DNA of 64,000 nucleotides from an uncultured bacterium (GTDB lineage Bacteria; Fidelibacterota; JAANXI01). Under the pieces are notes generated by a model. It did not search any database. It was not told where the DNA came from and saw nothing but the letters and a program-made list of their open reading frames with translations. The translations under genes were made by a program, and so were the position numbers. Positions 9,060 through 44,508 of the stretch are shown here, in pieces; the first letter of the stretch is position 1, and each line of letters starts with the position of its first letter. The stretch spans positions 25,942 through 89,941 of the forward strand of contig CAYPST010000001.1 of the NCBI GenBank assembly GCA_964413425.1, in the 5' to 3' direction.

Positions 9060-10652
9060 TCACGTCGACACCTTGAGCCGGTGAATTTCCCGGTCGCTCA
9101 CCTGTGCATATTTCCGTCCGCAGCGTTCGCAGACGGCTTTCTCCCCATCAAATGCCAGCCGGGTTCCGCACTCACACATCCAGCCGGCAATTCGCCCCGG
9201 GTTGCCAACCACAAGCGCATAGTCAGGCACATCTTTGGTTACCACCGCGCCGGCACCAATAAATGCATGCTTCCCCAGGGTGATCCCGCAGAGAATGGTG
9301 GCATTTGCACCGATAGAAACGCCTTCCTTCACCAGGGTTTTGATATAATACTCCGATCCCCGCTGAGGATATTTGGAGCGGGGATTCATAATATTGGTGA
9401 ATACCATGGATGGCCCGCAGAACACGTAATCCTCCAGCTCCACTCCCTCGTATACCGAGACATTGTTCTGGATTTTCACATGATCCCCAACCCGGACCCT
9501 GGGCCCCACCATGACATTCTGTCCCAGAGTGCAGTTCTCTCCGATGGTGGTATCGCCGAGAATATGACTGAAATGCCAGATTTTGGTCCCCTTCCCGATG
9601 GTGACGTTTTCGTCAATCACCGCGGTATCATGCACTCCCGGATGTCTGGGAGGTTTCACCCTCTCTGCTTCCCGGGAAACCAGACTGTTCTGCGCGGCAT
9701 CCAGAATTTGCAGCACCTGGATGCCGTTGCGCCCATCGGTTAACGGCTGCTTCCGCGACCGGACGCACTCCAGAAAGTGCTGACACTCCGACTTCAGGGG
9801 TTCTGTCTCCGGATAGGAAATACTCTCCCACTCGTTTTTCCGGGGAATCGGCTCCCCCTCCGTCCAGTCGATTCCCCGATCATACAGTTTGAGTTTATCT
9901 TCCGAGGCGGTATCCTCGAACACCAGCATTTTCTTACTCCCGATGATGGCCAGTCTGTGCTCCTTGAACGGATGCAGCCAGGACACATGAATATGCCCCA
10001 GCTGGTTATCGGGAAACTCCAGGGTGGTCAGGGTGACATCATGAATGTTCGGCTGCAGGAACATCCCGCCCTGGCAGCTGACGTTCTCCGGCATCGCCTT
10101 TAACAGGTGAAGCAGAACAGAAATATCGTGGGGAGCAAAACTCCAGAGAATATTTTCTTCCTGCCGGACTTTCCCCAGGTTCAACCGGTGAGAATAGACA
10201 TGATAGATCCGGCCGAGCTCGCCGGCGTCAATCATCTCCTTTATCTTCACAATGGCCGGATGATATAACAACAGGTGCCCGACCATCAGAATACGGTCGT
10301 TCTCCAACGCCAGCCGGTGCAGTTCTTCCGCCTCGTCCACCCGCAGCGCCAGCGGTTTTTCCACAAAGATATCTTTCCCGGCCAGCAGGGCTTTTCTGGC
10401 AATGGCATAATGGGTTTCCGCCGGGGTGGCGATGCCCACTGCAGTATAGTCATTCCGCTCCAGCACCTCATCCACGGATCCGAATCCCTCCGTTCCGGGA
10501 TATTGCTGCAGGAATGTTTCGAGACGTTCGGAATTGTCTTCCACAATGCCGCTGAGAACATCCAATTCGTGAAAATTCCTGATCAGATTCTTTCCCCAGT
10601 AACCAGCACCGATCACGGCCAGATTAATTTCAAAGGAAAATGAGGATGGCAA
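9060..10652 (-). CDS. bifunctional Gfo/Idh/MocA oxidoreductase (WbpB-like) fused to a hexapeptide-repeat N-acetyltransferase (WbpD-like), with a C-terminal zinc-ribbon
   Basis: 530 aa; N-terminal Rossmann GAGYWG plus EKPLAL of the Gfo/Idh/MocA family; C-terminal left-handed beta-helix hexapeptide repeats; terminal CECG-x13-CERCG. Confidence 0.75.
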
Positions 10653-11113
10653 AATTCATTCCCTTCCTGTTAGAATTGAGGTTGTTCCAAATAGTAAAGC
10701 AAAGAGCTTGTGTGCTTATTCAATGAGGATACCCAAGGATATATTGAATTATATTACGTATTTGTAAAGTCTTGTACAATAAGAGTCTATTTAGAAAACG
10801 CCTCGAAGAGATCCCGTGACGACGGGACAAAGAACACCTGAACAATTGGCTCCTGCATCCCGAAAAATATTCGGGAAATATGTGCTGTCTATACTCCATG
10901 GAAGCCGGGCGCAACATTTTGTCGATACTTACTGTTTTCTAAACACTCTCATAATTAAGTAAACCCTAAGTTGAGCGAAACGAGTGCCCCACTGGGATCC
11001 CTTAGGGATACTTCGGTAGAACCCCGACTGAGAAAATGTAGGTTTTCACCGAACGGGTGCGGAACGTCCCGACGCCGTTTTCGGGGAGGTGAACACGTAC
11101 ATTTTCTTTGTCG

Positions 11114-11145
11114 ATTGAGCGATTTATGGAAATAAATCGCTCAAT
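11114..11145. promoter_or_regulatory. 13-bp perfect palindrome with 6-nt spacer (ATTGAGCGATTTA-TGGAAA-TAAATCGCTCAAT)
   Basis: Both arms read identically on opposite strands; lies in the 618-bp AT-rich gap inside the polysaccharide locus; no flanking U-run, so more likely a protein-binding operator than an intrinsic terminator. Confidence 0.6.
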
Positions 11146-11270
11146 TTGGGTAAACATAATTCGTGACCATTCCCCGAAGCCTCGGGGCAGGCTGTGTAAT
11201 TCGTGGTTTCTATAGCACTCTCAGAATTGCGCAGATCAAAATTCAATTGGAATCGTCCCCGGGAATCGAA

Positions 11271-12632
11271 TCAGACTTCCAGCTTCACCGCCTCCCGGGG
11301 GGTTTCCAGATATCCGGTTCCCAGTTTGATCACATTTTGAGGAAGTTTTCCGTCGGTTTTACTGACAGCATTCCGTGTATCGACGACCAGCCGGGAATTC
11401 TCCACAATAGCCTGGTAATCGAACGTGGAATGGTCGGTGGCAATGACGGTGCAGTCGTACCCGGAAAGGAGGTCGTCGGAGTACTCGATGGATTGCATCT
11501 CCTTACCATCGAACTTGATCCGGGGGATATACGGATCGTAATACTCCACCTCGGCCCCTTTCTGGCGCAGGAGATTGATGATATCCAGCGCCGGGGATTC
11601 CCGGACATCATTGATATCCTTCTTGTAGGCGGCCCCTAACACCAGAATCCTGGCACCGTTGACGCTTTTCCGGTGCCGGTTGAGGCCTTCCATGGTGAGA
11701 TGGACCACATGGTAGGGCATTTCGGTATTGATTTCCCCTGCCAGTTCGATGAACCGGGCTTTATAATCCAGGGTCTTCATTTTCCAGGCCAGATAATGAG
11801 GGTCAATCGGAATGCAGTGTCCGCCTAAGCCGGGACCCGGATAGAACTTCATGAACCCGAACGGCTTGGTATCGGCTGCCTCGATGACCTCCCAGATATC
11901 CACACCCAGTTTCTCCGCCATAATGGCCATCTCATTCACCAGCCCGATATTAATAGATCGGAAGGTGTTCTCCAGCAACTTCACCAGTTCGGCCGCTTCC
12001 GTGGACGAGACCGGTACGATGGTATCGATGACCCCTTCATAGAGTAAGGCCCCCATCCGGGTGCACTCCGGCGTAATTCCCCCCAGAACTTTGGGGGTAT
12101 TTTTTGTGTGGTAGGTCCGATTGCCGGGATCCACTCTTTCCGGACTGAACACCAGATAGAAGTCTTCCCCGACCTCCAGCCCGCTTTCCTCCAGCCTGGG
12201 CAGCACCAGCTCTTTGGTGGTGCCGGGATAGGTGGTACTCTCCAGGATAATGATGATTCCGGAATGCAGATACTCCGTTATTGAATCCAGCGCTTTCAGG
12301 ATAAATGAGACATCGGGATCCTTCAATTTATTCAGCGGCGTGGGAACACAAATTGACACCGCTTCCATCTCTTCGATCACATTGAAATCGGTGGTGGCAG
12401 CCAGTTTACCCGCCTCAACCAGCCCTTTCAGGGTAGAATCTGAGACATCCTGGATGTAATTCTGTCCCGCGTTAATCCGCCGGACCTTCGATTCGTCAAT
12501 ATCGATCCCCACCACCCGAAATCCGGACGACGCGAAATCGGCGGCCAGCGGCAAACCGACGTATCCCAGTCCCACTATGCCCACCGTGATATCGTGCTGT
12601 TGAATTCGTTGCTCAAGATTCATTGCTGTCAA
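11271..12632 (-). CDS. nucleotide-sugar dehydrogenase (UDP-N-acetyl-D-glucosamine/mannosamine 6-dehydrogenase, WbpA/TviB-like)
   Basis: 453 aa; N-terminal GLGYVGLP Rossmann motif; catalytic Cys region (GGHCIPID); UDPG/MGDP dehydrogenase architecture. Confidence 0.8.
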   Translation of the reverse strand: MTAMNLEQRIQQHDITVGIVGLGYVGLPLAADFASSGFRVVGIDIDESKVRRINAGQNYIQDVSDSTLKGLVEAGKLAATTDFNVIEEMEAVSICVPTPLNKLKDPDVSFILKALDSITEYLHSGIIIILESTTYPGTTKELVLPRLEESGLEVGEDFYLVFSPERVDPGNRTYHTKNTPKVLGGITPECTRMGALLYEGVIDTIVPVSSTEAAELVKLLENTFRSINIGLVNEMAIMAEKLGVDIWEVIEAADTKPFGFMKFYPGPGLGGHCIPIDPHYLAWKMKTLDYKARFIELAGEINTEMPYHVVHLTMEGLNRHRKSVNGARILVLGAAYKKDINDVRESPALDIINLLRQKGAEVEYYDPYIPRIKFDGKEMQSIEYSDDLLSGYDCTVIATDHSTFDYQAIVENSRLVVDTRNAVSKTDGKLPQNVIKLGTGYLETPREAVKLEV

Positions 12633-32104: not shown

Positions 32105-33505
32105 TCACATCAACAGCTGAATCTTCTCCACGTACCCATCCGCATCGAATTTCCGCTTCAACCCATTCGCATTCATATACCGGACCTTCCCGTAGACGGG
32201 ACGTTCTTTCCATCCCTGGTCATGATTACCGAAGCACCAGGCAACCCCGGCATAGCCGTTGGGATCCCGTCCGTCGAGTTCGTACTTGTTATTTAAATAG
32301 AGTGCAATATCATACGCTCTTCCCGGATGCTCCGTCCACTCCAGGATCTTCTTCCCCCAGTACATCCGCATGTATCCGTGCATTTTCCCGGTAAGAACCA
32401 TTTCCATCTGAGCGGCATTCCAGTAAGGATCATGGGTCTCTGCTCTCTCAAATTCTCCCGGGGAGTACATATATTCACGCGTATCTTCTGCATGTTCGGA
32501 CAGAGTTACCCCAGCCCACTGTGGCAGGCAGGAAAATTCATCGTAATTTTCGGTGTAATAACAAAAATTCACGCTCAGTTCCCGCCGCACAATCAACTCT
32601 TCCAGGTAAGGGTCTTTGCCCGGACTTTCAGTCTCCAGGATCTTCCCGGCGATATAGAGCGGAGAGATTTGGCCGAAACGGAGATAGGGACTCATGCGTG
32701 AGAGGGCGTCTTCCACCGGATTATTACGGTCGATATCATATCGATCCAGTTTCTTCGCGATGAAAGTATTCAACAAATCACGTGCACGGGAAGTCCCGCC
32801 CCGGAAGTGCTCAGTCGGTGTCACCGATCGATCAACGTCAAGTGCGTGCAGCACAGCAGAGATATCCGAAATGTCTGCAGACCGGATACTAGGGCCGACG
32901 GAGGGATTCCTCACCTCTTCCCGCGTTACCGGGTGGAGAAATTTATCCAGATGGCGGTGTATTTTTGGCCGGATGGTTCTGGCAGCATACTCGCGTTTCA
33001 AAGTAACTTCCTCCACCGGGACCACCACATCAGATTCCACCTGGAATAAGGGACAATCGATGTTCCCGGCAACCTCCCGGCGCCACTGCCTCTGGATGCG
33101 CGTGTACCCGCGATCGGTAACCATAAGTACTGCCCGCCGGGAAAATTCTATGGCAACCCGTTCCGGAGACTGATAACGAATGGCCATCTGAATTCCGCGC
33201 TCTCGTAATTTCTGCTGTGTTTCCTGAAGCCCTTCCAGCATGAACTTGTAATGCCGGGCATTGGCCTCAGGATACTCACCGGTAATGCCGAACACCACCA
33301 GCGGCGGCACATTCAAACGGTTCGCATGCTGAACGGCAAACTCCAGAGCGTGATTGTACTCCTCTCGCTGAGAAGCCTGCATCCAATAGATCACATACTT
33401 CCCGGACTGCCCTGTGTGATCAGTCAGTCTTTGAACCCGCTCGGTCGGAATCATCGCCTGCGCCTCTAATGAACTTTTCATTCTCCCGTCCTCCTCCCGT
33501 GTCAA
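32105..33505 (-). CDS. phr: deoxyribodipyrimidine photolyase (class II CPD photolyase-like)
   Basis: 466 aa; photolyase N-terminal alpha/beta domain and FAD-binding C-terminal domain (WN...M...HGYMRMYWGK). Confidence 0.8.
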   Translation of the reverse strand: MTREEDGRMKSSLEAQAMIPTERVQRLTDHTGQSGKYVIYWMQASQREEYNHALEFAVQHANRLNVPPLVVFGITGEYPEANARHYKFMLEGLQETQQKLRERGIQMAIRYQSPERVAIEFSRRAVLMVTDRGYTRIQRQWRREVAGNIDCPLFQVESDVVVPVEEVTLKREYAARTIRPKIHRHLDKFLHPVTREEVRNPSVGPSIRSADISDISAVLHALDVDRSVTPTEHFRGGTSRARDLLNTFIAKKLDRYDIDRNNPVEDALSRMSPYLRFGQISPLYIAGKILETESPGKDPYLEELIVRRELSVNFCYYTENYDEFSCLPQWAGVTLSEHAEDTREYMYSPGEFERAETHDPYWNAAQMEMVLTGKMHGYMRMYWGKKILEWTEHPGRAYDIALYLNNKYELDGRDPNGYAGVAWCFGNHDQGWKERPVYGKVRYMNANGLKRKFDADGYVEKIQLLM

Positions 33506-33976
33506 TCATCGGTCCTTTCCGAACCGGTGTCTGAGGATTTCCGCCCGGAAGTGAAAAATGTCGTTCAGGCGTTTCCGGACGACGAACTTATGCACCAATT
33601 CTCCTATTATGCTCAGCGGCATGGCATAATGGACAATATCTTCCATTCTGGTGCCAGAAGCGGTTTCCCGGAACAGATGCTGATGATGCCAGAACCGATA
33701 CGGTCCGAAGCGCTGTTCATCTACGAACATCTTCCCGGGATGAAAATGAGTGATTTCGGTAATCCATCGGAGGGAGACGCCGGGAAATACGCCAATTCGG
33801 TACGTGATTATCAGACCTGCATACATCTGATCAGGTACCTCCGAAGTGATGCGAAACCGCAGCCAGTCAGGTGTGATGTCAGCGAGATTCCCGGGATCAG
33901 AGAAGAAATTCCATGCCTCCGCTAACTCAACCGGCAGCAGCTGCGTGCGATGAATGCGATGAAGGTTCACGTTCAA
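33506..33976 (-). CDS. SRPBCC (START/polyketide-cyclase-like) family protein
   Basis: 156 aa; abuts the photolyase gene with no intergenic gap. Confidence 0.6.
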   Translation of the reverse strand: MNVNLHRIHRTQLLPVELAEAWNFFSDPGNLADITPDWLRFRITSEVPDQMYAGLIITYRIGVFPGVSLRWITEITHFHPGKMFVDEQRFGPYRFWHHQHLFRETASGTRMEDIVHYAMPLSIIGELVHKFVVRKRLNDIFHFRAEILRHRFGKDR

Positions 33977-34037: not shown

Positions 34038-34733
34038 TCACTTTAAAAGCACCAACCCGAAATAGAGTATCTGGGCAAAAAATATATGCTTTGCTAACAT
34101 AGGCGCCTGATTCGGTACGGCATTGAACCGCAGACCGAGAACCGTGAAGAACAGACTTATTACGAACCAGGCGGTGTAATTCCGGAGCGGAATGCCCCCG
34201 CCAAACCAATGCCAGTACCCCAGTGTGACAGCCACTTGCTCCAGAAGGAAATCAAACAGGACCATCGACACTGCAATCAAAAGTCCCCGGAGCAGCCATT
34301 TCTGTTGTGTATTTTTCACAAGCCAGTCAACAACGCCGTTTGACGCCAGAAGCATCCCCAGCCATGCGAAACCGATTGCCAGGGGTACTCCCCGAATCAC
34401 CGGCCGGAGCACCTGGCCGTATTGATACTTTCCAAAAATTACGCCCGTTTGCGCCCCAATTAGTTCTACGAAAAAACTTGCGCCCAGCACAAAGAAGCTC
34501 CAGGCAATGAATACCAGACGACTGTGAGTCGACAGAATCCGATAATACTCACCTGCTAACCATATCCCGAGAACGATAATAACCGGCCCAGCCAGAATTC
34601 TCATGGTATCCTGCAATATTCCCAGGAGATGCCAGAACCCGCCGGCCAGGAGTATAAAGTAGAGCGCTCCGAGCTTGATCCGGGATATATGCTCCCGGTT
34701 GAATCCTCTCCGGATAAACCCGAATCTCCTCAT
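34038..34733 (-). CDS. membrane carotenoid biosynthesis protein, CruF-like (putative carotenoid 1',2'-hydratase)
   Basis: Polytopic membrane protein of about 230 aa from the internal Met at 34733 (the longer ORF would overlap the upstream gene by 86 nt); position in the carotenoid operon next to GT2 and acyltransferase genes mirrors cruF in Salinibacter/Rhodothermus clusters; assignment by context. Confidence 0.5.
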   Translation of the reverse strand: MRRFGFIRRGFNREHISRIKLGALYFILLAGGFWHLLGILQDTMRILAGPVIIVLGIWLAGEYYRILSTHSRLVFIAWSFFVLGASFFVELIGAQTGVIFGKYQYGQVLRPVIRGVPLAIGFAWLGMLLASNGVVDWLVKNTQQKWLLRGLLIAVSMVLFDFLLEQVAVTLGYWHWFGGGIPLRNYTAWFVISLFFTVLGLRFNAVPNQAPMLAKHIFFAQILYFGLVLLK

Positions 34734-34767
34734 ATCTTCCGTATGTTCCTGTCTTGTTAGCCAGCCA

Positions 34768-35889
34768 TTAAGGCGAGTGAAGAACAATGTCCCGCCCCTT
34801 CCAGTGTATAACCCCTTTCTTGACTTGCCGGTAGGAATCCACACTGATGACAAGCGTTAACAGGACCGCTACCGGATGCAGCAGAACACTTAGCAAAATG
34901 GGATGCCGAAACCGCAGAGCCAGCCCGCCCCTGATAAGCACATTCACAGCGATTGCTGCCCCTGAAAGCAACGCAAATGGCCGGAACCATATCACCGCGT
35001 AAGGGGCGATGGCCGTCAGCAACATCAGCGGCACAGCGACCCAGAAGAGCACGCTGTTATAGCCGGTCAATCCGAACATGATTTTCGTCATACCCTCCCG
35101 GGTCTCCTGCATTGTGCGGTACATTCTGGCAAATACCACCCCGGTCCCGGCTGCCGTCATCATCCGGATCCCGGCGGCTTTGGCCTTCCGGGCCAGCTCA
35201 ACATCTTCAACTATTTCTACGCGAACAGCCTGATGTCCTCCCAGCGATTGATACATGTCCCGCGTACATGCCAGCCATTGTCCGTTGGCTGCCGATAAAG
35301 ACGGAGCCGAAAACCGCAAGACAGCCCAGAGGGGCAGAGTACTGTAGAGAATCACGTCTATCATCGGTACCAGGAGTTTTTCCGGAACCGTCCGGGTTAT
35401 CTGCTGCGGAAATGCAGAAAATAATCCAAGATTACGCTGCTGCATCCATGCGATCGTCCTGGTCACTGCATCCGGAGCACACCAGTTATCCGCATCCGTG
35501 AAAATGAGCACCTCACCGCCCGCCACCTGACTCAATTGATGACAGGCCCAATTTTTTCCGGTCCAGCCAGGGGGTACCGGCTCCCCCCGTATCAGGGTGA
35601 TATTCGAATGGCGGGCAGCATACTCTTCTACCAACTCGCCGGTTTTATCTTCCGACCGGTCATCCAGCACCAGAATTTCCAGGGGTTCATAATTCTGCCG
35701 CACCAATCCCTCCAGGCACCGACTGATATTGCTGGCCTCATTCCGGGCCGGGACCAGCAACGAAACCTTTACCTGCTCAAGGACTGCTCCGCTCTGGCTC
35801 AACTGCGGGCCCCAAATAATATTCATGTACGAAATGAGCAGCAGGATGAAAAGCAGGGCGAAAATAACTGAAGCAAAGTACAACATCAC
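34768..35889 (-). CDS. family 2 glycosyltransferase (CruC-like carotenoid glycosyltransferase)
   Basis: 373 aa; N-terminal TM helix; GT-A fold motifs (LVPARNE, DD, TDADN DxD motif); C-terminal TM helices. Confidence 0.7.
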   Translation of the reverse strand: MMLYFASVIFALLFILLLISYMNIIWGPQLSQSGAVLEQVKVSLLVPARNEASNISRCLEGLVRQNYEPLEILVLDDRSEDKTGELVEEYAARHSNITLIRGEPVPPGWTGKNWACHQLSQVAGGEVLIFTDADNWCAPDAVTRTIAWMQQRNLGLFSAFPQQITRTVPEKLLVPMIDVILYSTLPLWAVLRFSAPSLSAANGQWLACTRDMYQSLGGHQAVRVEIVEDVELARKAKAAGIRMMTAAGTGVVFARMYRTMQETREGMTKIMFGLTGYNSVLFWVAVPLMLLTAIAPYAVIWFRPFALLSGAAIAVNVLIRGGLALRFRHPILLSVLLHPVAVLLTLVISVDSYRQVKKGVIHWKGRDIVLHSP

Positions 35890-35896
35890 CGAAATC

Positions 35897-36616
35897 CTAA
35901 GTAAACCACTCTTTGAATTGCCGGTATCTGGTATGGACTGAGGGCGTACCCTTCAGGAGAGGTGTGGCTGGTGGTTCCGTTTTCATATGATCAACCAGTT
36001 CGTCCAGCAACTGGGTCTCCTCCTTCTCTAACCATGGCATCCCCGGAAATTCCTGGCCAGTGATTACGTGATTTTCACCAAAGAGGACAAACACCTCCGG
36101 ACGCTGTTCCGCACACAACTCCGCTTTTATCGCCACGGGGATGATACTGACGCTGCCCTGATAACGAGTGAGAACCCACTCCAGTCCGCTTCGAAAATCC
36201 AGCGGACGCTGAAACCAGGACACCAGATCTCCCTGGGGAAAAATGCAGACCAGCGAGGCGGGTTTACTGTGCTCGTCCAGCAACTCCAGAGTATATTGCA
36301 GCGATTCCATCATCCCCTTCCGTGATTCCAGTGGAATGGAGTAAGCCCCCACCTTCGCAAAGAACCGGAACGACCGAAGCTGGTCCTCGGTCACCATGAG
36401 ATAGAACGGCCGCTTGAAGACCTTCACATTGAGCAGATAGATTAAGAATCCGTCCCACCAGGTGCTGTGATTAGGTGCAAGCACTACGGGAATCGCCGGG
36501 GCAGTCGAAGGAATATCACCATAGATATAAATCCCTGCAAAGGACTTCCTGAGCAGCCGAAAAATGTAGGAACGGAAGATCTGCTCGAACCATCCTGAAT
36601 GAGCGGCTTTAATCAT
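35897..36616 (-). CDS. lysophospholipid-acyltransferase-family protein (CruD-like carotenoid glycoside acyltransferase)
   Basis: 239 aa; H(X4)D motif NHSTWWD; located between the GT2 gene and crtB. Confidence 0.65.
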   Translation of the reverse strand: MIKAAHSGWFEQIFRSYIFRLLRKSFAGIYIYGDIPSTAPAIPVVLAPNHSTWWDGFLIYLLNVKVFKRPFYLMVTEDQLRSFRFFAKVGAYSIPLESRKGMMESLQYTLELLDEHSKPASLVCIFPQGDLVSWFQRPLDFRSGLEWVLTRYQGSVSIIPVAIKAELCAEQRPEVFVLFGENHVITGQEFPGMPWLEKEETQLLDELVDHMKTEPPATPLLKGTPSVHTRYRQFKEWFT

Positions 36617-36760: not shown

Positions 36761-37675
36761 TTATGTATTCACCGACACCATTTGCTCTTGCCTGAACGAC
36801 AGCCTGGTTCGGAGGATTTCTCCGAGCAGGATTTGCAGTTTCTCGGTCTTTGGTACATATACACGTTCCAGGAACGGATTATAGCCGCGCGCTTCAATCT
36901 TTGCGAGAATGCCCCGGTAGATCTTACTGGCAGCGTAAATGGCAAATTGAGCATTCTTCTCCAATAACTGGATGCCTGGCTGGGCTTCATCGTAATATCG
37001 GTGGGCTCTGCTCACCTGAAAGGTCATGAGGTCCTGCATTGCGTCAGACATAGTACCTGCCTGAACATGATGATCTCTCAGATTAAACCTTCCCAGTTCA
37101 TCCTGGGGCAAATATATTCTGCCTCGTCCGACATCCTCTTTCACATCCCGCAGAATATTCGTCAACTGCATGGCAATCCCCAATTTTTCTGCGTATGCAA
37201 AGGCCTCCTCACTCTGGTATCCCAGAACATAGGTCATCATAATCCCCACAACGCCCGCCACCCGATAGGCAAACAGATACAGATCATCAAAGGTCTCGTA
37301 GCGTGAGAGCCGGAGGTCCATTTCAATGCCCTGTAACAGCTCCTGCGGATATTGTTCCGGAATCTCATATTCCCTGGCAACAATAATGAAAGGCTGCAGT
37401 ACGGGATGTTCTGATTCTCCGGTGCGGTAGGCGACACTGAGTTCCTCGGAGAGATAGGAGATCTCCCGGCTCAGCTCTTCAACAGAGCGCTGCCGGGGGT
37501 TATCTATCAAATTATCTGCATACCGGCAGAGGCCATACAGTGCATAGGTGGCCCACTGCTTCTGCTCCGGAAGCATCCGGGCGGAAAGATAGAAGCTTTT
37601 CGAGTGATGCGCCGTCAGCAGCCGGGCATGTTCGAATGCCACTTTGTTTTCGCCATTCATCCAGTGGTATTTCAT
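36761..37675 (-). CDS. crtB: phytoene synthase
   Basis: 304 aa; squalene/phytoene synthase Asp-rich motifs (YCRYADNLID, DLRLSRY region). Confidence 0.85.
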   Translation of the reverse strand: MKYHWMNGENKVAFEHARLLTAHHSKSFYLSARMLPEQKQWATYALYGLCRYADNLIDNPRQRSVEELSREISYLSEELSVAYRTGESEHPVLQPFIIVAREYEIPEQYPQELLQGIEMDLRLSRYETFDDLYLFAYRVAGVVGIMMTYVLGYQSEEAFAYAEKLGIAMQLTNILRDVKEDVGRGRIYLPQDELGRFNLRDHHVQAGTMSDAMQDLMTFQVSRAHRYYDEAQPGIQLLEKNAQFAIYAASKIYRGILAKIEARGYNPFLERVYVPKTEKLQILLGEILRTRLSFRQEQMVSVNT

Positions 37676-37679
37676 ACAA

Positions 37680-39185
37680 TCAGGCCCTTTTTCTTTGATA
37701 TTGTTGCATATTAAAATCTGAGAGCACCACCTGCTCGGTGGCTTCCGCAGTCAGGAGCACGCCAGGCACTCCGGCTCCGGGGTGAGTACTCGCTCCTACA
37801 AAATACAGCCTGTCGATGTCTTCACTCCGGTTATGCGGACGGAAGATGGCGGTCTGGGTGAGTTTCGGCTCCACGCCCCACGCACTTCCCAGGTACGAAT
37901 TGCGCTGCGTCCGGAAATCCTCCGGAGTAAACAATTCCATAACGCCGATATTCTCCGTCAATCCCTGTAATCCGAAATCCTCCTCCAGATAACGCAGGAT
38001 TCTTCCGGCATATCGCTCCCCCTGCTGCTCCCAGTCGATACCGCTTCGAGCGTTTGCCACGGGAACCAGGATCGTCATGCTCTCGGCGTCAGGCGGGGCC
38101 ATCCCGGGATCCGTGCGGCTTGGAACATGCAGATAGATGGAAAAATCCTCCGGAAGAATCTTCTGATCGAATATATCCCGGACCAGTTCCTTGTATCGAG
38201 GGGACAGCACAATTGTGTGATGCCGGAGCTGCGGAAATTGCTTTTTCACACCTACATACATCAAAAATGCACTCATGGAATAATCCAGGTTTTCCACCCG
38301 GCGGTTGGTCCACTTATGTCTATGTACCGGAGGTATCAACTCCCGATAGGTATGAGCAAAATCCGCATTGGATATAACGGCGTCGGCGTCGAGGAACCGT
38401 CCATCCGTCTGTACTCCCACAGCCATACCATCGTTGACGACAATTTCCCGGGCCGGAGTATTGGTGAGTACGCGTCCTCCCAGTGATTCGAAGACCGACT
38501 CCAGCGCCCCGACCAGCGAATACATGCCGCCTTTGGAGTACCAGACGCCGCCGATCTTCTCCAGATAGGGAATCATCAGGTAAACCGCCGGGGCGCGAAA
38601 CGGATTCCCGCCGATGAACAGGGGATGAAAGGAAAACGCAAACTGATGCCGGGGGTCTGCAAAATGGCGCCTTACAAAAGTATGAGTCGACAACAGCGCC
38701 TTCAGTTTCAGAGCCCGGGGAAGGAACTGCAGCATGGTCCCCCAATCCATAAACGGCTGGGATCCGAGTCCGTCGGTGATGACCGCATGATACAACTCAC
38801 GTGATTCCCGGACGAAATCCTCGTAATGCTCCGCATCCGACGGGTTAAATTGCTTCATCTGCGCAATCATCCGGTCGGTATCATCCGTATAATCCAGGTA
38901 TGTACGGTCATGATAATATATCCGATAGAACGGATTCAATTTTGTCAGCTTTAGGTGATCCTCCATCCGGGTTCCACCGGCGTGAAACACCTTCTGAATG
39001 ATATCGGGCGCCGTGATGAGTGACGGCCCCATATCGAAGGTGTATCCCTCCTTTTTCAGCTGGAAAGCATGGCCGCCCACAGCAGCATTCTTCTCCAGGA
39101 GAGTCACTTCAAATCCCAACCCCTGTAATCGAATGGCAATAGCCAGACCACCCAATCCGGCGCCAATGACCACGATCTTATTCAT
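37680..39185 (-). CDS. crtI: phytoene desaturase
   Basis: 501 aa; N-terminal FAD-binding VIGAGLGGLA; CrtI-family C-terminal signature. Confidence 0.85.
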   Translation of the reverse strand: MNKIVVIGAGLGGLAIAIRLQGLGFEVTLLEKNAAVGGHAFQLKKEGYTFDMGPSLITAPDIIQKVFHAGGTRMEDHLKLTKLNPFYRIYYHDRTYLDYTDDTDRMIAQMKQFNPSDAEHYEDFVRESRELYHAVITDGLGSQPFMDWGTMLQFLPRALKLKALLSTHTFVRRHFADPRHQFAFSFHPLFIGGNPFRAPAVYLMIPYLEKIGGVWYSKGGMYSLVGALESVFESLGGRVLTNTPAREIVVNDGMAVGVQTDGRFLDADAVISNADFAHTYRELIPPVHRHKWTNRRVENLDYSMSAFLMYVGVKKQFPQLRHHTIVLSPRYKELVRDIFDQKILPEDFSIYLHVPSRTDPGMAPPDAESMTILVPVANARSGIDWEQQGERYAGRILRYLEEDFGLQGLTENIGVMELFTPEDFRTQRNSYLGSAWGVEPKLTQTAIFRPHNRSEDIDRLYFVGASTHPGAGVPGVLLTAEATEQVVLSDFNMQQYQRKRA

Positions 39186-40776
39186 GTGTCCTTCCTTGCT
39201 TCTTTTGATTAATAATGCTGTCCAACCCGGCTTGCCAGTATTCCGTTATTTCCCGGAGTGACTGGCTATGATTCTGAGGCATGTCCTTCTCAACTGAGAA
39301 CCCCTCCTGTTCGGCAATCAAAGTGGCCGCCATCCGTCCGGAGAGGAGCACCAGCGGTATCCCGCCGCCGGGATGGACCGAGCCACTGGCAAAGTACAGC
39401 CCCCGAATATCCCGGCTGCGATTGGGATGACGTTGAAATGCCGTTGTCCGGCTGTTGGAAGACACCCCATAAATGCTCCCCTTATTGCTGCCAAACAGGC
39501 GAAAGAAGTCCACCGGAGTCAGTACTTCTTCCAGCTCGATATCCGAGGCGATATCAATGCCGTGTGCTCTGAGTTTTCGGAATACCTGCTGCCGGGTTTC
39601 ACCGACAAACCGCGACCAGTTCTGGCTGCCGAACATATACGGCATATTCACCAGCACAAACCAGTTCTCCCGGCCTGCAGGGGCATCCCCGGGGTCGGTC
39701 TTTGAGGAGATTGCGATATATACCGTGGGATCATCAGGAGCCCGCAATTCCTGAAACAACTGTCGAAACTCCTGCCGGTAATCATTGGAAAAGAAAATAT
39801 TATGGTGCTTCAGATCCGGCGTCACACCTCGTTTGCCCCAGAAGAACACTAACCCGGAGAGCGATGGTTCAAGCGCAGTCACCTGCCGATGCAGGTGGGG
39901 CAGGTTCTCCAGCAGTTGATTGTAAGCGGTCACAACATCGACATTACAGATGACGTAATCCGCCCGGTAGGATTCTCCCCCGACTCGAACCCCTGCCACC
40001 TGCTCCCCGTTATGCTGTATTTTTTCCACCCGGGTCGAATGGTGAATTCGTACTCCCCTGGCACGCGCCATTTGCTGCAGTATCTCTACCAGACGATACA
40101 TTCCTCCGGAAATGTAAAAGCCGCCCAGGCCGAATTCCACATAAGGGATAATGTTCAGCGTTGCCGGCGCCTGATAGGGATCGGAGCCGTTATATGTGGC
40201 ATACCTGTCGAATAATTGAATCAACTTCGGATCCTGAAAATGGGATGCGACAGCCTTATGGACCGTTCGCAGTGGATCGATTCTATGCAGAAGGGTGAGC
40301 GATTTCAAGTACATGGGAAAACGAGACAAACTTATCTCATGAATCGGATTCCAGAGAAAGAGATCTGCCGTGTGCTCGAAAATCCGCTTACTATAACGGA
40401 GGAATCGACGGTACGAGCGCACATCATCCGGCGCAACACGACGGATTTCCGCTTCCATTGAAACCGGGTCCATACTGGCGTCGAACACAGTTCCGTCAGG
40501 AAACTGATATCTGCAGAGCGGATCCAGTGGAATATATTCTAAAGAATCCGACGGTTCCGCCTCGATGAACCGGAATAACTCATCCACCACAAACGGCATG
40601 GTCAGCAGGGAGGGGCCGGTATCGAATCGATAGCCGTCCAGCCGGAGTTCATTCATCTTTCCGCCCAGCGACCGGTTCTGCTCAAACAGTGTGACGTCAA
40701 ACCCCATTTTCGCCAGCCGGAGGGCACTGCTCAAACCCGCCAGTCCACCGCCGACGACAGTAACTTTCTTAGGCAT
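39178..40776 (-). CDS. CrtI-family carotenoid oxidoreductase (CrtO-type ketolase or CrtD-type 3,4-desaturase)
   Basis: About 530 aa from Met at 40776; FAD motif VVGGGLAGLS; second CrtI paralogue in the operon, as in salinixanthin-type clusters; exact reaction not assignable from sequence. Confidence 0.7.
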   Translation of the reverse strand: MPKKVTVVGGGLAGLSSALRLAKMGFDVTLFEQNRSLGGKMNELRLDGYRFDTGPSLLTMPFVVDELFRFIEAEPSDSLEYIPLDPLCRYQFPDGTVFDASMDPVSMEAEIRRVAPDDVRSYRRFLRYSKRIFEHTADLFLWNPIHEISLSRFPMYLKSLTLLHRIDPLRTVHKAVASHFQDPKLIQLFDRYATYNGSDPYQAPATLNIIPYVEFGLGGFYISGGMYRLVEILQQMARARGVRIHHSTRVEKIQHNGEQVAGVRVGGESYRADYVICNVDVVTAYNQLLENLPHLHRQVTALEPSLSGLVFFWGKRGVTPDLKHHNIFFSNDYRQEFRQLFQELRAPDDPTVYIAISSKTDPGDAPAGRENWFVLVNMPYMFGSQNWSRFVGETRQQVFRKLRAHGIDIASDIELEEVLTPVDFFRLFGSNKGSIYGVSSNSRTTAFQRHPNRSRDIRGLYFASGSVHPGGGIPLVLLSGRMAATLIAEQEGFSVEKDMPQNHSQSLREITEYWQAGLDSIINQKKQGRTHE

Positions 40777-41446
40777 GGCGGACCCTTCGGAGTTTTTCAT
40801 ACAAAATGAGTGTGAACAGAATCAGTGCGAATCCATAGAAGAAATCCTCCAGTGGGATAGTAAAAATGTATATACCCAGCTGGAAGGATGTATCATACAA
40901 CACCAGAGGACGGGCGGTGAGATACCCGTTAAACAGCAAAATAAACACAGCCAGAACGCCCAGATATCGATAGGTTCTGCTTTCCAGGAGCACGCCGGTT
41001 TTCAACACCAGATCCAGCCCTATCACCAGAGCCAGGGCCAGCAAGACCAATCCCGGATATTCATATCCAAGCAGTAGAAACAGTGTTCCGATAATCAGGC
41101 TGCAGGCCGCGAAAACTCCAAGCGTTCCGGTACGAATTACAACAGCTGCTTCACGATGAGCGAAAAACACTTCCCAGACAAACAGGCAGGCGAACGGGAC
41201 CGAAACAAAAAACAATATTTCCTCCACAGGGAGTCCTGCTACCCGAAATCCTGTGGTGTAATCCTGATTAAACCACCAGTGCCGCCCGACAACCAGGGCA
41301 TCCCAGAGAACAAAAGGGACCAGCACGGCTGCGATAGCCGTAAAAACCATCGGCCACCTTGAGGCGAACCGGACTTTGTTTTCAAAACTAAAGCCAATCG
41401 GACCGGCCATCACCAGCACATTAAACAGGAGATATTCGTATTTCAT
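40769..41446 (-). CDS. lycopene cyclase domain protein (fused CrtYcd type)
   Basis: 225 aa; seven hydrophobic segments; duplicated heterodimeric-lycopene-cyclase-like halves. Confidence 0.7.
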   Translation of the reverse strand: MKYEYLLFNVLVMAGPIGFSFENKVRFASRWPMVFTAIAAVLVPFVLWDALVVGRHWWFNQDYTTGFRVAGLPVEEILFFVSVPFACLFVWEVFFAHREAAVVIRTGTLGVFAACSLIIGTLFLLLGYEYPGLVLLALALVIGLDLVLKTGVLLESRTYRYLGVLAVFILLFNGYLTARPLVLYDTSFQLGIYIFTIPLEDFFYGFALILFTLILYEKLRRVRHA

Positions 41447-42021
41447 TCGCTGTGTATCTCAGCTTTTATTGTATTAAGAGTCACCTCTTCTCCGGCAGTC
41501 AGGGGAACTTCCTCTTCCATGAACCGGACGACATCCAGGATCAGTTCGGAGTCGTACTGCCGATAATTCTCCTCCAGTAACCCTATGATGTGCCGGAATG
41601 TCTTAAGAGCATCCTCTTTGCAGCCGAAGAAGAACGGCAGATGATGACAGGTCATTCCATAGATGAAAAGTGCTTCCAGATCATCGGGAGCTTCCGTTAA
41701 TCCCTGCTCCATCATCTGTAAACCATCCTGCACATATCGCAATTTCTTCTGTGGCATAAAGGCGTGCTTGCCTTTCAGGGTATAGGCCGCCCCTGTATAA
41801 GTCAGTGCCAGTCCGTTATAGGCCGGCGCATGGCTGGAGAGCTCCTGGAATATTTCCTGAGTCGTATCCACCAGGCTTTCCTGCCGCACGGCCTCATAGA
41901 ACGCCTTCCGGCCCTTATCCAATAACACCTCCATATCGGCAGCAGACGCCTGGTATCCCGCGGGCCCTCCGGTGAATATAGACAGGCCAACCAGCAGTAT
42001 GAGATATTTCCGTTTCTTCAA
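41443..42021 (-). CDS. secreted hypothetical protein, first gene of the carotenoid operon
   Basis: 192 aa; Sec signal peptide (MKKRKYLILLVGLSIFTGGPAGYQASA); helical; ATGA-type overlap with crtYcd start. Confidence 0.55.
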   Translation of the reverse strand: MKKRKYLILLVGLSIFTGGPAGYQASAADMEVLLDKGRKAFYEAVRQESLVDTTQEIFQELSSHAPAYNGLALTYTGAAYTLKGKHAFMPQKKLRYVQDGLQMMEQGLTEAPDDLEALFIYGMTCHHLPFFFGCKEDALKTFRHIIGLLEENYRQYDSELILDVVRFMEEEVPLTAGEEVTLNTIKAEIHSE

Positions 42022-42196
42022 TGGTCCCCTCTTCTCCGTTTGCTCATATGGTTATTTCTGAATATATGAGCGTTATGAACGGTAAATGTTACAGATTTAT
42101 TTTAACTGAGTCAAATATAAAAGTTCAATACGATTATATTATTTGCTTCTCCGGTACGCAGACAGTAATTTTCTTCTGAATATCAGGGAGGGGAAT
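42022..42196. promoter_or_regulatory. divergent promoter/operator region between the carotenoid operon and the litR/carH-like regulator
   Basis: 175-bp AT-rich intergenic region between two divergent start codons; direct repeat TTCTGAATAT at 42056-42065 and 42173-42182; TGTTACA/TGTCAAA-like elements. Confidence 0.5.
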
Positions 42197-43066
42197 ATGC
42201 GTGCGACCATACAATATTTTTCTACCAAAGATGTGGCCCGTCTCCTGGGTGTTCACGTCTCCACTATCAAGCGGTGGACGCAAGAGGGGAAGCTGGACTG
42301 CATTAAAACCGCCGGTGGCCACCGGAAATTTTCCTTTCAGCATATCACCAAATTTCTGCAGGATCATCGTGAGCAGATTGACCGGGCCAATCTCCTCTCA
42401 ATCGAATCCGGAGAGGACCTCCAGCTCAGTTATGAAATAATGAATAACAATACGGACTTCCTCGGAGAGTATATTTTTGCACAGGCATTACAGCGAAACA
42501 GGAAGCAGGTCAATAAGGTGTTGAACGGACTATCGCTGGCCCAGTACCCACTCTACCGGGTTTATGACGAGATTCTGACTCCGGTGCTCCACGAAATTGG
42601 CGATCAATGGGAGGCGAATGAACTCACCGTGATTGAAGAGCACATTGCAGCCCAAACCATCCGGGATGCGATTATCCGGCTGCAGGGTATTCTCCAATTA
42701 CCGGAGACCACCCGCGGCAATGTTCTGTGTCTCAGCCTCACTTCCGAACTGCATGATATTGCCCTCAAGATGGCAGACCATATTCTGGAACAGCGGGGCT
42801 TCACCGTCCTGTTCAGCGGACAAATGACCCCGCTCTATGGTATCGAGACTGTTTTGCAGAAGTACGAGGTCAGCCGTCTCTATATTTCGAGCACGTACGT
42901 TTCCGATGTCAACCGCGCGCAGTTTGAACTGAATTATCTCTACGATCACTGCGCTGATTATGGTACGGATATCATTGTGGGAGGGAGCGGTTTTGATACA
43001 CTGGAATACGATCACCCGGCGGTAAAGGCGCGGCTGCATACGTTCAGGGAAATACAGGAATATTAA
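42197..43066 (+). CDS. MerR-family transcriptional regulator with C-terminal cobalamin-binding domain (CarH/LitR-type light-responsive regulator)
   Basis: N-terminal MerR HTH (YFSTKDVARLLGVHVSTIKRW); C-terminal B12-binding-like module (ELHDIALKM with candidate axial His, ...SxV..., ...GGSG); GGGAGGGG RBS upstream of the Met at 42197 (the longer ORF starts at 42143). Confidence 0.7.
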   Translation: MRATIQYFSTKDVARLLGVHVSTIKRWTQEGKLDCIKTAGGHRKFSFQHITKFLQDHREQIDRANLLSIESGEDLQLSYEIMNNNTDFLGEYIFAQALQRNRKQVNKVLNGLSLAQYPLYRVYDEILTPVLHEIGDQWEANELTVIEEHIAAQTIRDAIIRLQGILQLPETTRGNVLCLSLTSELHDIALKMADHILEQRGFTVLFSGQMTPLYGIETVLQKYEVSRLYISSTYVSDVNRAQFELNYLYDHCADYGTDIIVGGSGFDTLEYDHPAVKARLHTFREIQEY

Positions 43067-43093: not shown

Positions 43094-43774
43094 TCAGAGC
43101 GAAGCCAGCAGGACGGCAATAATTCCGGTCAGGAAAATCCCGTCGAATGTGCCGGCGCCGCCGATGGACGCCACCGGGGCACCGGAGTGGGCAATCTTCT
43201 TCAGATTCAACAGATCCGCGCCTATCAGCGTCCCGAAGGTTCCGGAAATATAGGCCACCACCGGCTCATATGTATTGGTGAGGATGACCGCTGCCAGGGC
43301 GGCAATAATCGGCGGGATGAACAGCGGAACACCGATGCCTACCCCCTGTATCTGCCGGGCCAGTCTGTTAACAGCCACCGTCAATATGGCGGTGGCAACC
43401 AGAGCGGGAAGCAGAATGGCGGGATTTGACAGGAGCAGATAGAGTGACAGCAGCACCGGGATGACAGCGCCACCGACATTCACCGCAATCAAAGTCTCAT
43501 TGCTCCGGGCCATTCCCGGAATCCGGAACCGCCAGCCCATAAACCGCACCTGCGAACCGGTGGAGACAACCACATCGCTGGAAATGCGCTTCACCGGAAC
43601 ATTCACCGCACTCCCCAGCAGTGAGAGAAACAGCAGAAGAAATACGGCCTCCATGGGAATACCGACGGCTTCGAACGCGTAACCAATCACCCCAATCTGC
43701 ACGATAAAGAACAGGAATCCCAGTATCAGAATGTACAGGAGAAAGAAAATAAACAGAAACGGAAGAAAATACAT
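43094..43774 (-). CDS. DUF1614-like polytopic membrane protein
   Basis: 226 aa; about 6 TM helices; family assignment from memory. Confidence 0.5.
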   Translation of the reverse strand: MYFLPFLFIFFLLYILILGFLFFIVQIGVIGYAFEAVGIPMEAVFLLLFLSLLGSAVNVPVKRISSDVVVSTGSQVRFMGWRFRIPGMARSNETLIAVNVGGAVIPVLLSLYLLLSNPAILLPALVATAILTVAVNRLARQIQGVGIGVPLFIPPIIAALAAVILTNTYEPVVAYISGTFGTLIGADLLNLKKIAHSGAPVASIGGAGTFDGIFLTGIIAVLLASL

Positions 43775-44037: not shown

Positions 44038-44508
44038 TTATCGCTGGTCTTTCGTGGCGTCATTCTGCGAAGCAGTCAGATCTTCCACCCGCTGTTTTAA
44101 TGCTTCATTCATCTGTTGAAAGCCAACCCGGGTGTTGGTATCCAGGCTCCGCCACAACAGCGGGACCAGGAGTCCGGTGAAATTTTCTTCCTGGGTAAAT
44201 AACACTTTCTTCTCCGACAGGGGCAGAATTTGAAAGATATGCTCTCCGTTGAATAACCGGGGGAGCCCCATTCGTCCTATCCAGCGAAATTCTCTGGGAG
44301 GATTGGCCGTCAGTACGGTCGGTCTGAACCACATCCCCTTGCTGCCGGGTGGTTTGATCAACACCTCCAGGCGACTCCCGCTGACCGGGGTTCCGATAAT
44401 CTCCGGAATGAAGGGGTTCCATTCGGCATGAGCCCCGAAATCCATTAAGGTTTGCCACACCTGCTCCGCGGATGCCCGAATCTCAATCTCACTGCGTAAG
44501 GTCCGCAT
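44038..44508 (-). CDS. SRPBCC family protein
   Basis: 156 aa; polyketide-cyclase/START-like fold indicators (WNPFIPE, FRWIG). Confidence 0.6.
   Translation of the reverse strand: MRTLRSEIEIRASAEQVWQTLMDFGAHAEWNPFIPEIIGTPVSGSRLEVLIKPPGSKGMWFRPTVLTANPPREFRWIGRMGLPRLFNGEHIFQILPLSEKKVLFTQEENFTGLLVPLLWRSLDTNTRVGFQQMNEALKQRVEDLTASQNDATKDQR

Follow-up and report, generated by a model that had tools for sequence, protein, structure and literature searches.

A predicted exported helical protein encoded with carotenoid biosynthesis genes in uncultured bacteria

Genomic Context and Reading Frame of Gene X

We analyzed a 64,000-nucleotide stretch of contig CAYPST010000001.1 (positions 25,942 to 89,941, forward strand) from the assembly GCA_964413425.1 of an uncultured Fidelibacterota bacterium; this whole stretch is referred to as the window. 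It carries an operon of ten genes on the minus strand, in the order X, crtYcd, crtD-like, crtI, crtB, acyltransferase, GT2, cruF, SRPBCC and photolyase (Table 1), and the subject of this report is the first of these, which we call gene X. Taken as one joint statement, we consider it highly probable that X is a real gene, that its product is exported by sequence criteria, and that it is functionally tied to carotenoid clusters. X founds a previously undescribed family that is genetically dedicated to carotenoid pathways, mostly those for monocyclic carotenoid glycoside fatty-acyl esters, in the diderm Fibrobacterota-Chlorobiota-Bacteroidota (FCB) group and in Poribacteria.

Table 1. Coordinates of gene X, its signals and motifs, the other operon genes and the divergent regulator gene (window positions; ORF, open reading frame; TPR, tetratricopeptide repeat; TM, transmembrane; HTH, helix-turn-helix).
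Feature	Position	Strand	Evidence
Gene X, 192-aa precursor, predicted exported TPR-like helical protein	41443-42021	-	TTG start, TGA stop; ORF list, homologues, AlphaFold model
Signal-peptide coding part of X, residues 1-27 (MKKRK / YLILLVGLSIFTGG / PAGYQASA; predicted cleavage between ASA and AD)	41941-42021	-	Sequence reading
Family motif 1, G84-KHAFMPQK-K93, helix 3/4 junction	41743-41772	-	K85 91%, P90 99%, K93 95%
Family motif 2, E116-ALFIYGMTCHH-LPFFFG-C134, helix 5 and aromatic helix 5/6 loop	41620-41676	-	E116 97%, L128 90%, P129 99%, F131/F132 82-83%
ATGA stop/start overlap of X with crtYcd	41443-41446	-	Plus strand 'tcat'
Shine-Dalgarno-like GGAGAAGAGGGG	42026-42037	-	4 nt upstream of TTG start; sequence reading
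Candidate repressor operator TCATAACGCTCA	42067-42078	-	Just downstream of -10; sole match in window
Sigma-70-type promoter-like TTGACT-17-TAACAT	42086-42114	-	Promoter scan; -35/-10 arrangement shared by L001, L005, L009, L055
crtYcd, fused heterodimer-type lycopene cyclase, 225 aa, ~6 TM	40769-41446	-	PF18916 twice, TIGR03462, TM count
crtD-like 1-hydroxycarotenoid 3,4-desaturase, CrtI family, 540 aa	39178-40800	-	NF042421 438 bits (cutoff 500); TIGR02734 above cutoff
crtI, phytoene desaturase	37680-39185	-	TIGR02734, 551 bits
crtB, phytoene synthase	36761-37675	-	PF00494, 1e-74
PlsC-type acyltransferase, cruD-like	35897-36616	-	PF01553; syntenic in 59/72 loci
Membrane GT2 glycosyltransferase, cruC-like, ~5 TM	34768-35889	-	PF00535, PF13506; TM count
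cruF, carotenoid 1',2'-hydratase, ~7 TM	34038-34853	-	PF04240; TM count
SRPBCC/START-like protein without signal peptide	33506-33976	-	PF03364; L001 has it at same position
Photolyase/cryptochrome-family gene, distal operon end	32105-33505	-	PF00875; L001 has it at same position
Divergent CarH/LitR-type regulator gene (MerR HTH and B12-binding)	42143-43066	+	PF13411, PF12728, PF02607; NF052513 CarH 1.2e-16, below cutoff

The TTG codon of X is the earliest start possible in its frame and aligns with the ATG of the homologue at locus L001, the two proteins being 58% identical. The N-terminus has a basic n-region, a 14-residue h-region YLILLVGLSIFTGG (Y6-G19), a Pro/Gly break, and A-S-A at positions -3 to -1, features that agree with the rules for Sec export and signal peptidase I cleavage (a basic n-region, an h-region of 7-15 residues, small residues at -3 and -1). 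Neither a lipobox Cys nor a twin-arginine motif was seen on reading this N-terminus. Export was judged by sequence rules alone; in the AlphaFold model, residues 1-22 are disordered (predicted local distance difference test, pLDDT, <50) and helix 1 begins at residue 27. A hydrophobic signal-type segment is present at the N-terminus of 49 of the 55 stand-alone family members, many of them with AXA-type sites. The mature protein is predicted to have 165 residues, a mass of 18.9 kDa, an isoelectric point of 4.8 and a grand average of hydropathicity of -0.27, and these last two values indicate that it should be soluble.

No Pfam family (E<=0.01) and no NCBIfam model matched X, whereas all of the neighboring genes match theirs, and none of the models for known carotenoid enzymes in the two collections (CrtB/I/D/Y, CruF/C/D, CrtZ/W/O) recognized it. 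A chance reading frame can be set aside, because homologues at 27-73% identity occur in 72 species genomes and the structural model is confident. An earlier note on this DNA, made from the letters alone, had described a 192-aa protein with a Sec signal peptide and no enzyme motif, and the reading frame, the N-terminal features and the empty Pfam and NCBIfam results all agree with that description. The translational coupling of X to crtYcd that it proposed was also borne out: the plus-strand letters 'tcat' place the TGA of X over the ATG of the 225-aa frame downstream, and the two PF18916/TIGR03462 lycopene-cyclase domains in that frame identify it as a fused CrtYc-CrtYd.

The other biosynthetic genes suggest what the operon makes. 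The crtD-like frame, which overlaps crtYcd by 32 nt, encodes a protein that falls under the CrtD equivalog cutoff and passes the CrtI-family model, so 3',4'-desaturation is only assumed. Ignavibacterium album, which has the same crtB/I/D/Y and cruF/C/D set, yields pigments of the 1-OH-torulene/deoxyflexixanthin type, whose elution profile was ascribed to forms esterified as glycosyl fatty-acyl esters (PMC3362086). Since each chemical step towards the expected product has an enzyme in the operon, X is more readily understood as an accessory factor than as a missing enzyme.

Family Distribution and Linkage to Carotenoid Clusters

A word-indexed homologue search of 5.8 billion proteins with the single X sequence returned 8 proteins, which badly understates the family, as a profile search without a word index, run against 1.84 billion cluster representatives, returned 1471 at E<=1e-3, 412 at E<=1e-10 and 68 at E<=1e-30. 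When one genome per GTDB species was scanned for a sequence pattern and the matches were confirmed by tblastn, X turned up in 72 genomes. As labeled, these comprise 42 Poribacteria, 5 KSB1, 2 Calditrichia, 1 Ignavibacteria, 2 Kapabacteria, 5 Bacteroidota-type, 2 Fibrobacterota, 1 Gemmatimonadota, 4 Hyphomicrobiales and 8 unclassified genomes, and all of them are metagenome-assembled. In their source annotations the X homologues are always "hypothetical protein," apart from one obvious mis-annotation.

Loci were searched by tblastn with the proteins of the window operon, the locus queries being the carotenoid genes together with those for CarH and DUF1614, and matches to these queries cover the genes on either side of X. 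Carotenoid genes lie beside the X homologue in 70 of the 72 loci. One of the two exceptions, L075, has only 318 bp of upstream flank, and its nearest relatives, L074 and L076, have crtI-crtB upstream. The other, L072 (Poribacteria), is the sole locus with a downstream flank but without carotenoid genes: the contig opens with a truncated copy of X at positions 1-363 (residues ~56-146, the tail being divergent), and next come a polysaccharide-deacetylase-like frame and unrelated genes; this copy may be a pseudogene or mark an assembly break. With carotenoid genes at 70 of 72 loci, the concern raised in the earlier note, that homologues might occur mostly outside carotenoid loci, does not apply. 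Nor is the gene poorly conserved in comparison with its neighbors, the second concern raised there. Median identity to the window protein was 38.7% for X, 40.9% for cruF, 45.7% for the acyltransferase, 46.1% for crtYcd, 46.3% for the glycosyltransferase, 56.4% for crtD, 57.6% for crtB and 62.6% for crtI; X is the least conserved of the set, yet lies in the range of cruF.

The commonest gene order is X>crtYcd>crtD>crtI>crtB>acyltransferase>glycosyltransferase>cruF, and crtYcd follows X immediately in 58 of the 72 loci. X is followed by a crtD-like gene in 6 loci, and also in L054, where crtYcd is upstream of X. In four of these loci, of the Kapabacteria type (L064, L066, L067, L068), no further carotenoid gene was detected in the flanks that were fetched. 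Among these minimal loci, L066 is the one that was annotated with Pfam; there X and the crtD-like gene form a two-gene operon (9929-12038) with overlapping stop and start codons, and the neighbors are housekeeping genes. The order crtI>crtB>X is found in the Bacteroidota-type loci L074 and L076, and cruF>crtB>X>acyltransferase in the Fibrobacterota/Gemmatimonadota-type loci L077-L079 and also in L081 and L084. A metagenomic homologue that is 36% identical, P0008, stands first in an operon with the order X>crtI>crtB>FA_hydroxylase-family gene (crtZ-like)>cyclase>glycosyltransferase.

The association is thus not that of a single frozen operon, as gene order takes at least four forms, the lineages number at least eight and identity falls as low as 27%. 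This range bears on the idea that X is a neutral passenger, associated with carotenoid genes through nothing more than the shared ancestry of one operon. It is true that a single phylum, Poribacteria, contributes 42 of the 72 loci, all with one gene order, so that raw counts overstate independence. The link nevertheless persists across all of these orders, lineages and identities and in gene fusions with crtB, and the motifs of the family are strongly conserved; a passenger role is, in our view, scarcely credible.

The same comparison qualifies a link to crtYcd in particular, which the earlier note had proposed to follow by co-occurrence. That crtYcd is the usual gene directly downstream is clear from the counts, but the linkage is not specific to it, as crtD, or crtB and the acyltransferase gene, take its place elsewhere. 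A crtYcd-specific role was therefore rejected, X being found with crtD alone or after crtB where there is no adjacent cyclase gene. Because the immediate partner varies among crtYcd, crtD and crtB/acyltransferase, the role of X more likely concerns the whole pathway or its product than a single enzyme to which X would belong as a subunit.

Two further observations concern the surroundings and relatives of the family. A YceI-like gene lies 1.3 kb from X in L074 (11687-12367, minus strand), on the opposite strand to X and behind two frames for cNMP (cyclic nucleotide)-binding/Crp-type regulators. YceI-like proteins are a family of periplasmic polyisoprenoid-binding proteins, and the proximity in this locus may be a coincidence. 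Separately, the family profile also picked up a set of long, apparently cytoplasmic proteins of 540-970 aa (P0085, P0090, P0102, P0127 and others), which contain three tandem related domains, with the motif R..RG..[SY]Y.LP..FFH, in addition to ordinary TPR repeats. P0085 (L083 6001-8106) has no signal peptide and shows a faint RMD1-3 TPR match, and its neighborhood, the one locus examined, holds pyrimidine, AMP-ligase and 3-dehydroquinate synthase (DHQS) genes and is non-carotenoid. Given this context, the three-repeat proteins were treated as what looks like a distant sister group and not as members of the family.

Gene Fusions and Predicted Topology

Some family members are fused to carotenoid enzymes. 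P0153 (832 aa; L081 1617-4115) consists of CruF, CrtB, one hydrophobic helix and X, and is followed by an acyltransferase gene, while P0100 and P0247 consist of CrtB, one TM helix and X. The stretch before the linker helix contains 15-23 Lys and Arg residues, and the 40 residues after it are net acidic, a positive-inside charge pattern that places CrtB in the cytoplasm and X outside. Judged from this pattern, the former signal peptide is predicted to act as a TM linker in the fusions, with phytoene synthase and X on opposite sides of the membrane. This topology agrees with the signal-type N-terminal segment of most stand-alone members. X would then act in the periplasm, and the fused forms would do so immediately at the inner membrane.

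Predicted Fold and Conserved Residues

An AlphaFold model of X, built from an eight-sequence alignment (pLDDT 86, predicted TM-score, pTM, 0.80), has eight helices over residues 27-191 (27-44, 48-64, 66-86, 90-110, 115-127, 135-155, 158-171 and 176-191), and the model of a Gemmatimonadota member, P0158 (alignment A3; pLDDT 85, pTM 0.80), has nine. The models predict that X folds as four TPR-like helix-turn-helix pairs, an alpha-solenoid of antiparallel helix pairs. A Foldseek search of the PDB gave just weak generic TPR matches (best E 7e-3, TM-score <0.5). The structural neighbors listed are mostly non-enzymatic TPR-like binding or scaffold proteins, with HusA, TatT and BstC among the fold neighbors. 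PDB sequences gave no significant match, either by phmmer with the single sequence or by hmmsearch with a profile. A canonical TPR was not recognized in the window protein by Pfam at E<=0.01, and sub-threshold TPR_19/TPR_14 matches (best E ~0.01) appeared in 4 of 18 distant members.

Conservation, calculated from a 175-sequence alignment, is concentrated on helices 3-6 and two aromatic loops. The family consensus motifs are GKHAF[WM]PxxK and E..LF....C[HY][HY]LPFFFGR (motifs 1 and 2 in Table 1). Outside these motifs, R38 (94%), Y75 (91%), G77 (90%) and F167 (86%) are conserved, as are G100/L101 and P112; within the motifs, H86 (77%) and C125 (65%) are less fixed polar positions. As the 3/4 and 5/6 loops share one edge in an antiparallel solenoid, the conserved aromatic residues F88, W/M89 and F130-F132 would form a rim there. 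This rim appears to be flanked by the basic residues K85, K93 and R134, a composition typical of surfaces that lie at membrane interfaces or stack against conjugated ligands.

Near-invariant polar residues (R38, Y75, K85, H86, K93, E116 and C125) around the two loops look more like an active or specific binding site than a generic scaffold, and they raise the possibility that X is an enzyme or catalytic helper acting on the carotenoid or its sugar-acyl head group from the periplasmic side, for example in isomerization, acyl remodeling or oxidation. Against this, X resembles no enzyme family in Pfam, NCBIfam or PDB sequences, the structural neighbors listed are mostly non-enzymatic, and H86 and C125 are replaceable within the family. 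The operon enzymes also already cover all steps of the expected product (cf. PMC3362086), and we regard a catalytic role as quite improbable.

The main alternative to the pigment-handling role proposed below is that X is a periplasm-side scaffold or assembly factor for the membrane enzymes CrtYcd, CruF and GT2, which would attach to their periplasmic loops or termini and stabilize or organize a metabolon without binding pigment. The TPR-like fold is a classic protein-protein interaction module, the conserved R38, K85, K93 and E116 might together clamp a peptide or a carboxylate, and X is coupled translationally to crtYcd, its usual downstream neighbor. The covalent CruF-CrtB and CrtB fusions likewise imply 1:1 proximity at the inner membrane. 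The neighbor of X is inconstant, however: the Kapabacteria-type gene occurs only with CrtD, a cytoplasm-facing flavoprotein, the Bacteroidota gene follows the cytoplasmic crtB, and X is retained in loci without a nearby crtYcd. Weighing these points, we think that a pure scaffold is somewhat unlikely.

Promoter Region and Regulation

A gap of 121 bp separates X from the divergent CarH-like gene. The earlier note had placed X next to a promoter, and this stands: the element TTGACT-17-TAACAT, read from 42114 to 42086 on the minus strand, keeps its position in related loci. A motif of the TCATAACGCTCA type, in many cases duplicated or inverted, is found in the equivalent position before X in L001, L002, L003, L005, L006, L007, L009, L055 and L080, and the consensus across loci is a TTGAC(T/A)-17-TA..AT promoter followed immediately by TCA(A/T)(A/T)ACGCTCA. 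The Calditrichia loci have the operator-like motif duplicated as TCAAAACGCTCAAAACGC, together with an inverted copy upstream. The divergently encoded CarH/LitR-type repressor probably has the TCA(A/T)(A/T)ACGCTCA motif as its operator. CarH operators consist of 11-bp direct repeats, and the motif upstream of X, with its repeat of ~9 bp, differs from them.

The promoter, the motif and the photolyase gene at the operon end together support X as the first gene of a light-regulated operon, and regulation of the operon by light seems to us a reasonable reading of this arrangement. It is less easy to see X itself as a regulatory or sensory element that controls carotenogenesis, for example as an anti-sigma-like factor or in envelope- or light-stress signaling. 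Repressors of the CarH/LitR type sense light directly through B12 and need no such partner. No sigma factor, kinase or other signaling partner was found in the window or conserved across the 72 loci, X is internal or last in the operon and far from any regulator in many lineages, and it has no cytoplasmic domain apart from the signal peptide. The anti-sigma-like function that the earlier note had offered as one option loses its footing for the same reasons, with no sigma gene nearby and a CarH-type repressor in place, and we consider a regulatory role highly improbable.

Several neighboring genes complete the picture of the locus. A second SRPBCC/START-like (polyketide_cyc) protein without a signal peptide is encoded at 44038-44508 on the minus strand, and this protein and the one encoded in the operon at 33506-33976 are candidate cytoplasmic binders of lipids or carotenoids. 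Directly beyond the CarH-like gene, at 43094-43774 on the minus strand, lies a gene for a DUF1614 integral membrane protein (~6 TM); it keeps its position at 74-81% identity in L001 and L005, and the loci from other phyla gave no match to it. No rhodopsin-like frame, which would have suggested a carotenoid antenna, and no large frame of the RND (resistance-nodulation-division)/MMPL exporter type was found in the window, as judged by frame size and the count of TM segments, and the only frames in the window with five or more predicted TM segments are cruF, crtYcd, GT2, DUF1614 and an energy-coupling factor (ECF) S-component.

A Possible Role in Periplasmic Carotenoid Handling

The linkage of X to the pathway as a whole, together with a fold of the HusA/TatT/BstC type, makes a role in carotenoid handling the best reading of these observations. 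Specifically, we propose that X works in the periplasm, next to the inner membrane, and handles the carotenoid glycolipid made by the pathway on the outer face of that membrane by binding it, chaperoning it and possibly trafficking it. We offer this tentatively, as a possibility that falls a little short of an even chance. A periplasmic carotenoid-binding or chaperone protein was among the ideas of the earlier note, and it is the one that best fits the fold neighbors, the soluble acidic mature protein and the whole-pathway linkage, although the role itself is our interpretation of these features.

The proposed sequence of events would begin with co-production of X and the enzymes from the CarH-controlled, presumably light-induced promoter, and with export of X to the periplasm. 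There X could dock on the outer face of the inner membrane by its conserved edge, using the aromatic loops AF[WM]P and LPFFFG and the basic residues K85, K93 and R134, and might bind the finished or near-finished carotenoid in a groove that helices 3-7 would form. X would hold, extract or position the pigment, and in this way stabilize it in the envelope and possibly pass it on towards the outer membrane. Export, membrane docking, carotenoid binding and any trafficking would each be a separate step of this scheme and are put forward here as predictions.

Several observations weigh against such a role. Proteins or peptides, rather than lipids, are the usual ligands of TPR-like folds. Among the most conserved positions of the family are the charged R38, K85, K93 and E116, for which a neutral polyene has no obvious need, and these four could instead belong to a catalytic site or to a clamp for a peptide or carboxylate. 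A short linker tethers X to the inner membrane in the fusions, so that X could not shuttle to the outer membrane in those proteins. There is also no conserved transporter or outer-membrane partner near X, either in the window or in the loci as queried with the carotenoid, CarH and DUF1614 proteins. A stronger version of the handling proposal would make X the first dedicated periplasmic carotenoid carrier, taking carotenoid glycolipids from the outer leaflet of the inner membrane and delivering them to the outer membrane or holding them for it; this we regard as doubtful.

Significance

Bacterial carotenoid pathways as described consist, to our knowledge, of cytoplasm-facing or membrane-embedded enzymes and include no exported component. 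X is conserved and carries a signal peptide, its gene shares its regulation with carotenoid genes in at least eight lineages, and it is occasionally fused to CrtB, which together imply that the pathway includes a step on the periplasmic side. That step might consist in the handling, placement or trafficking of the pigment, or in the assembly of membrane enzymes. The genomic signal is broad and solid, was previously unannotated, and poses a question on the carotenoids of the cell envelope that can be put to the test. A family model could be defined from the signature R38, Y75-x-G, GKHAFWPxxK, E116 and LPFFFGR, for which Pfam and NCBIfam have had no entry so far.

If X does bind carotenoids, it would represent a new soluble carotenoprotein scaffold and open the distribution of isoprenoid pigments within the diderm envelope to experiment. 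The heterologous production or solubilization of carotenoid glycosides could then also benefit. Were the carrier version true, X would explain how carotenoids are placed in diderm envelopes and would be a pigment-specific addition to the known bacterial intermembrane lipid carriers (Lol, Mla, Lpt, BstABC).

Comparison with Known Systems

Our search of the literature found no exported carotenoid-pathway factor, and what comes closest in published work is gene 10 of the Rhodothermus marinus carotenoid cluster (PMC7414004). That cluster has the order MerR - cruF::crtB - gene 10 - cruD - crtI, and gene 10 is listed as a "hypothetical protein" with no function assigned (PMC7414004). Gene 10 occupies the same position as X in L077-L079, L081 and L084 (cruF>crtB>X>acyltransferase>...>crtI), a likeness by position only, and its cluster also resembles those considered here in having a MerR regulator alongside and a cruF-crtB fusion. 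No Rhodothermus protein was among the matches of the X homologue searches, and the profile searches contained no named or cultured organism either.

Small all-helical carotenoid binders are already known in photoprotection, namely the N-terminal domain of the orange carotenoid protein (OCP) and the helical carotenoid proteins (HCPs; PF09150), and X is likewise helical and encoded in what we take to be a light-regulated carotenoid operon. The HCPs, however, are cytoplasmic and cyanobacterial, whereas X is predicted to be exported and occurs in the FCB group and Poribacteria, and X showed neither a match to PF09150 nor the fold of the OCP N-terminal domain. Identities of the OCP/HCP-like kind and of the beta-rich LolA/MlaC/YceI-like kind were rejected on fold and context.

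The TatT/BstC family (PF16811) offers a second comparison. TatT is the T-component of the TPR-protein-associated tripartite ATP-independent periplasmic (TPAT) transporters (3u64, 8g53), and BstC of Methylococcus (7t1s) is a periplasmic sterol carrier that binds sterols in a hydrophobic cavity (PMC10942540). Both proteins are larger than X, with 12 helices in a closed ring with a pore, and they are encoded with transporter partners of the tripartite ATP-independent periplasmic (TRAP) or RND type, whereas X has no transporter gene in its operon or its neighborhood in the window. Pfam gave no match to PF16811 for X or for distant members of its family.

The third comparison is with HusA, the hemophore of Porphyromonas gingivalis (6crl), an exported protein whose non-canonical TPR-like fold has four helix-turn-helix pairs; its helix pairs 3/4, 5/6 and 7/8 make up a hydrophobic groove in which porphyrins are bound by pi-stacking (PMC6173696). 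HusA and X both have an N-terminal signal peptide, a mature length of ~170-195 residues and the non-canonical TPR-like solenoid of four pairs, and the groove of HusA may be set beside the conservation of X on helices 3-6 and the aromatic loops. The two differ in that HusA takes part in heme uptake with a TonB-dependent receptor, while X belongs to carotenoid biosynthesis operons, and 6crl was not returned for X by phmmer or by profile hmmsearch of PDB sequences, even at E<=10. The signature of the X family, GKHAFxPxxK ... E..LF....C..LPFFFGR, was defined in the present analysis. We therefore treat HusA, TatT and BstC as analogues that may illustrate a possible mode of action of X, and not as family assignments. 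X is best described as a new family among the exported TPR-like proteins that bind ligands or partners, in a pathway where none was known.

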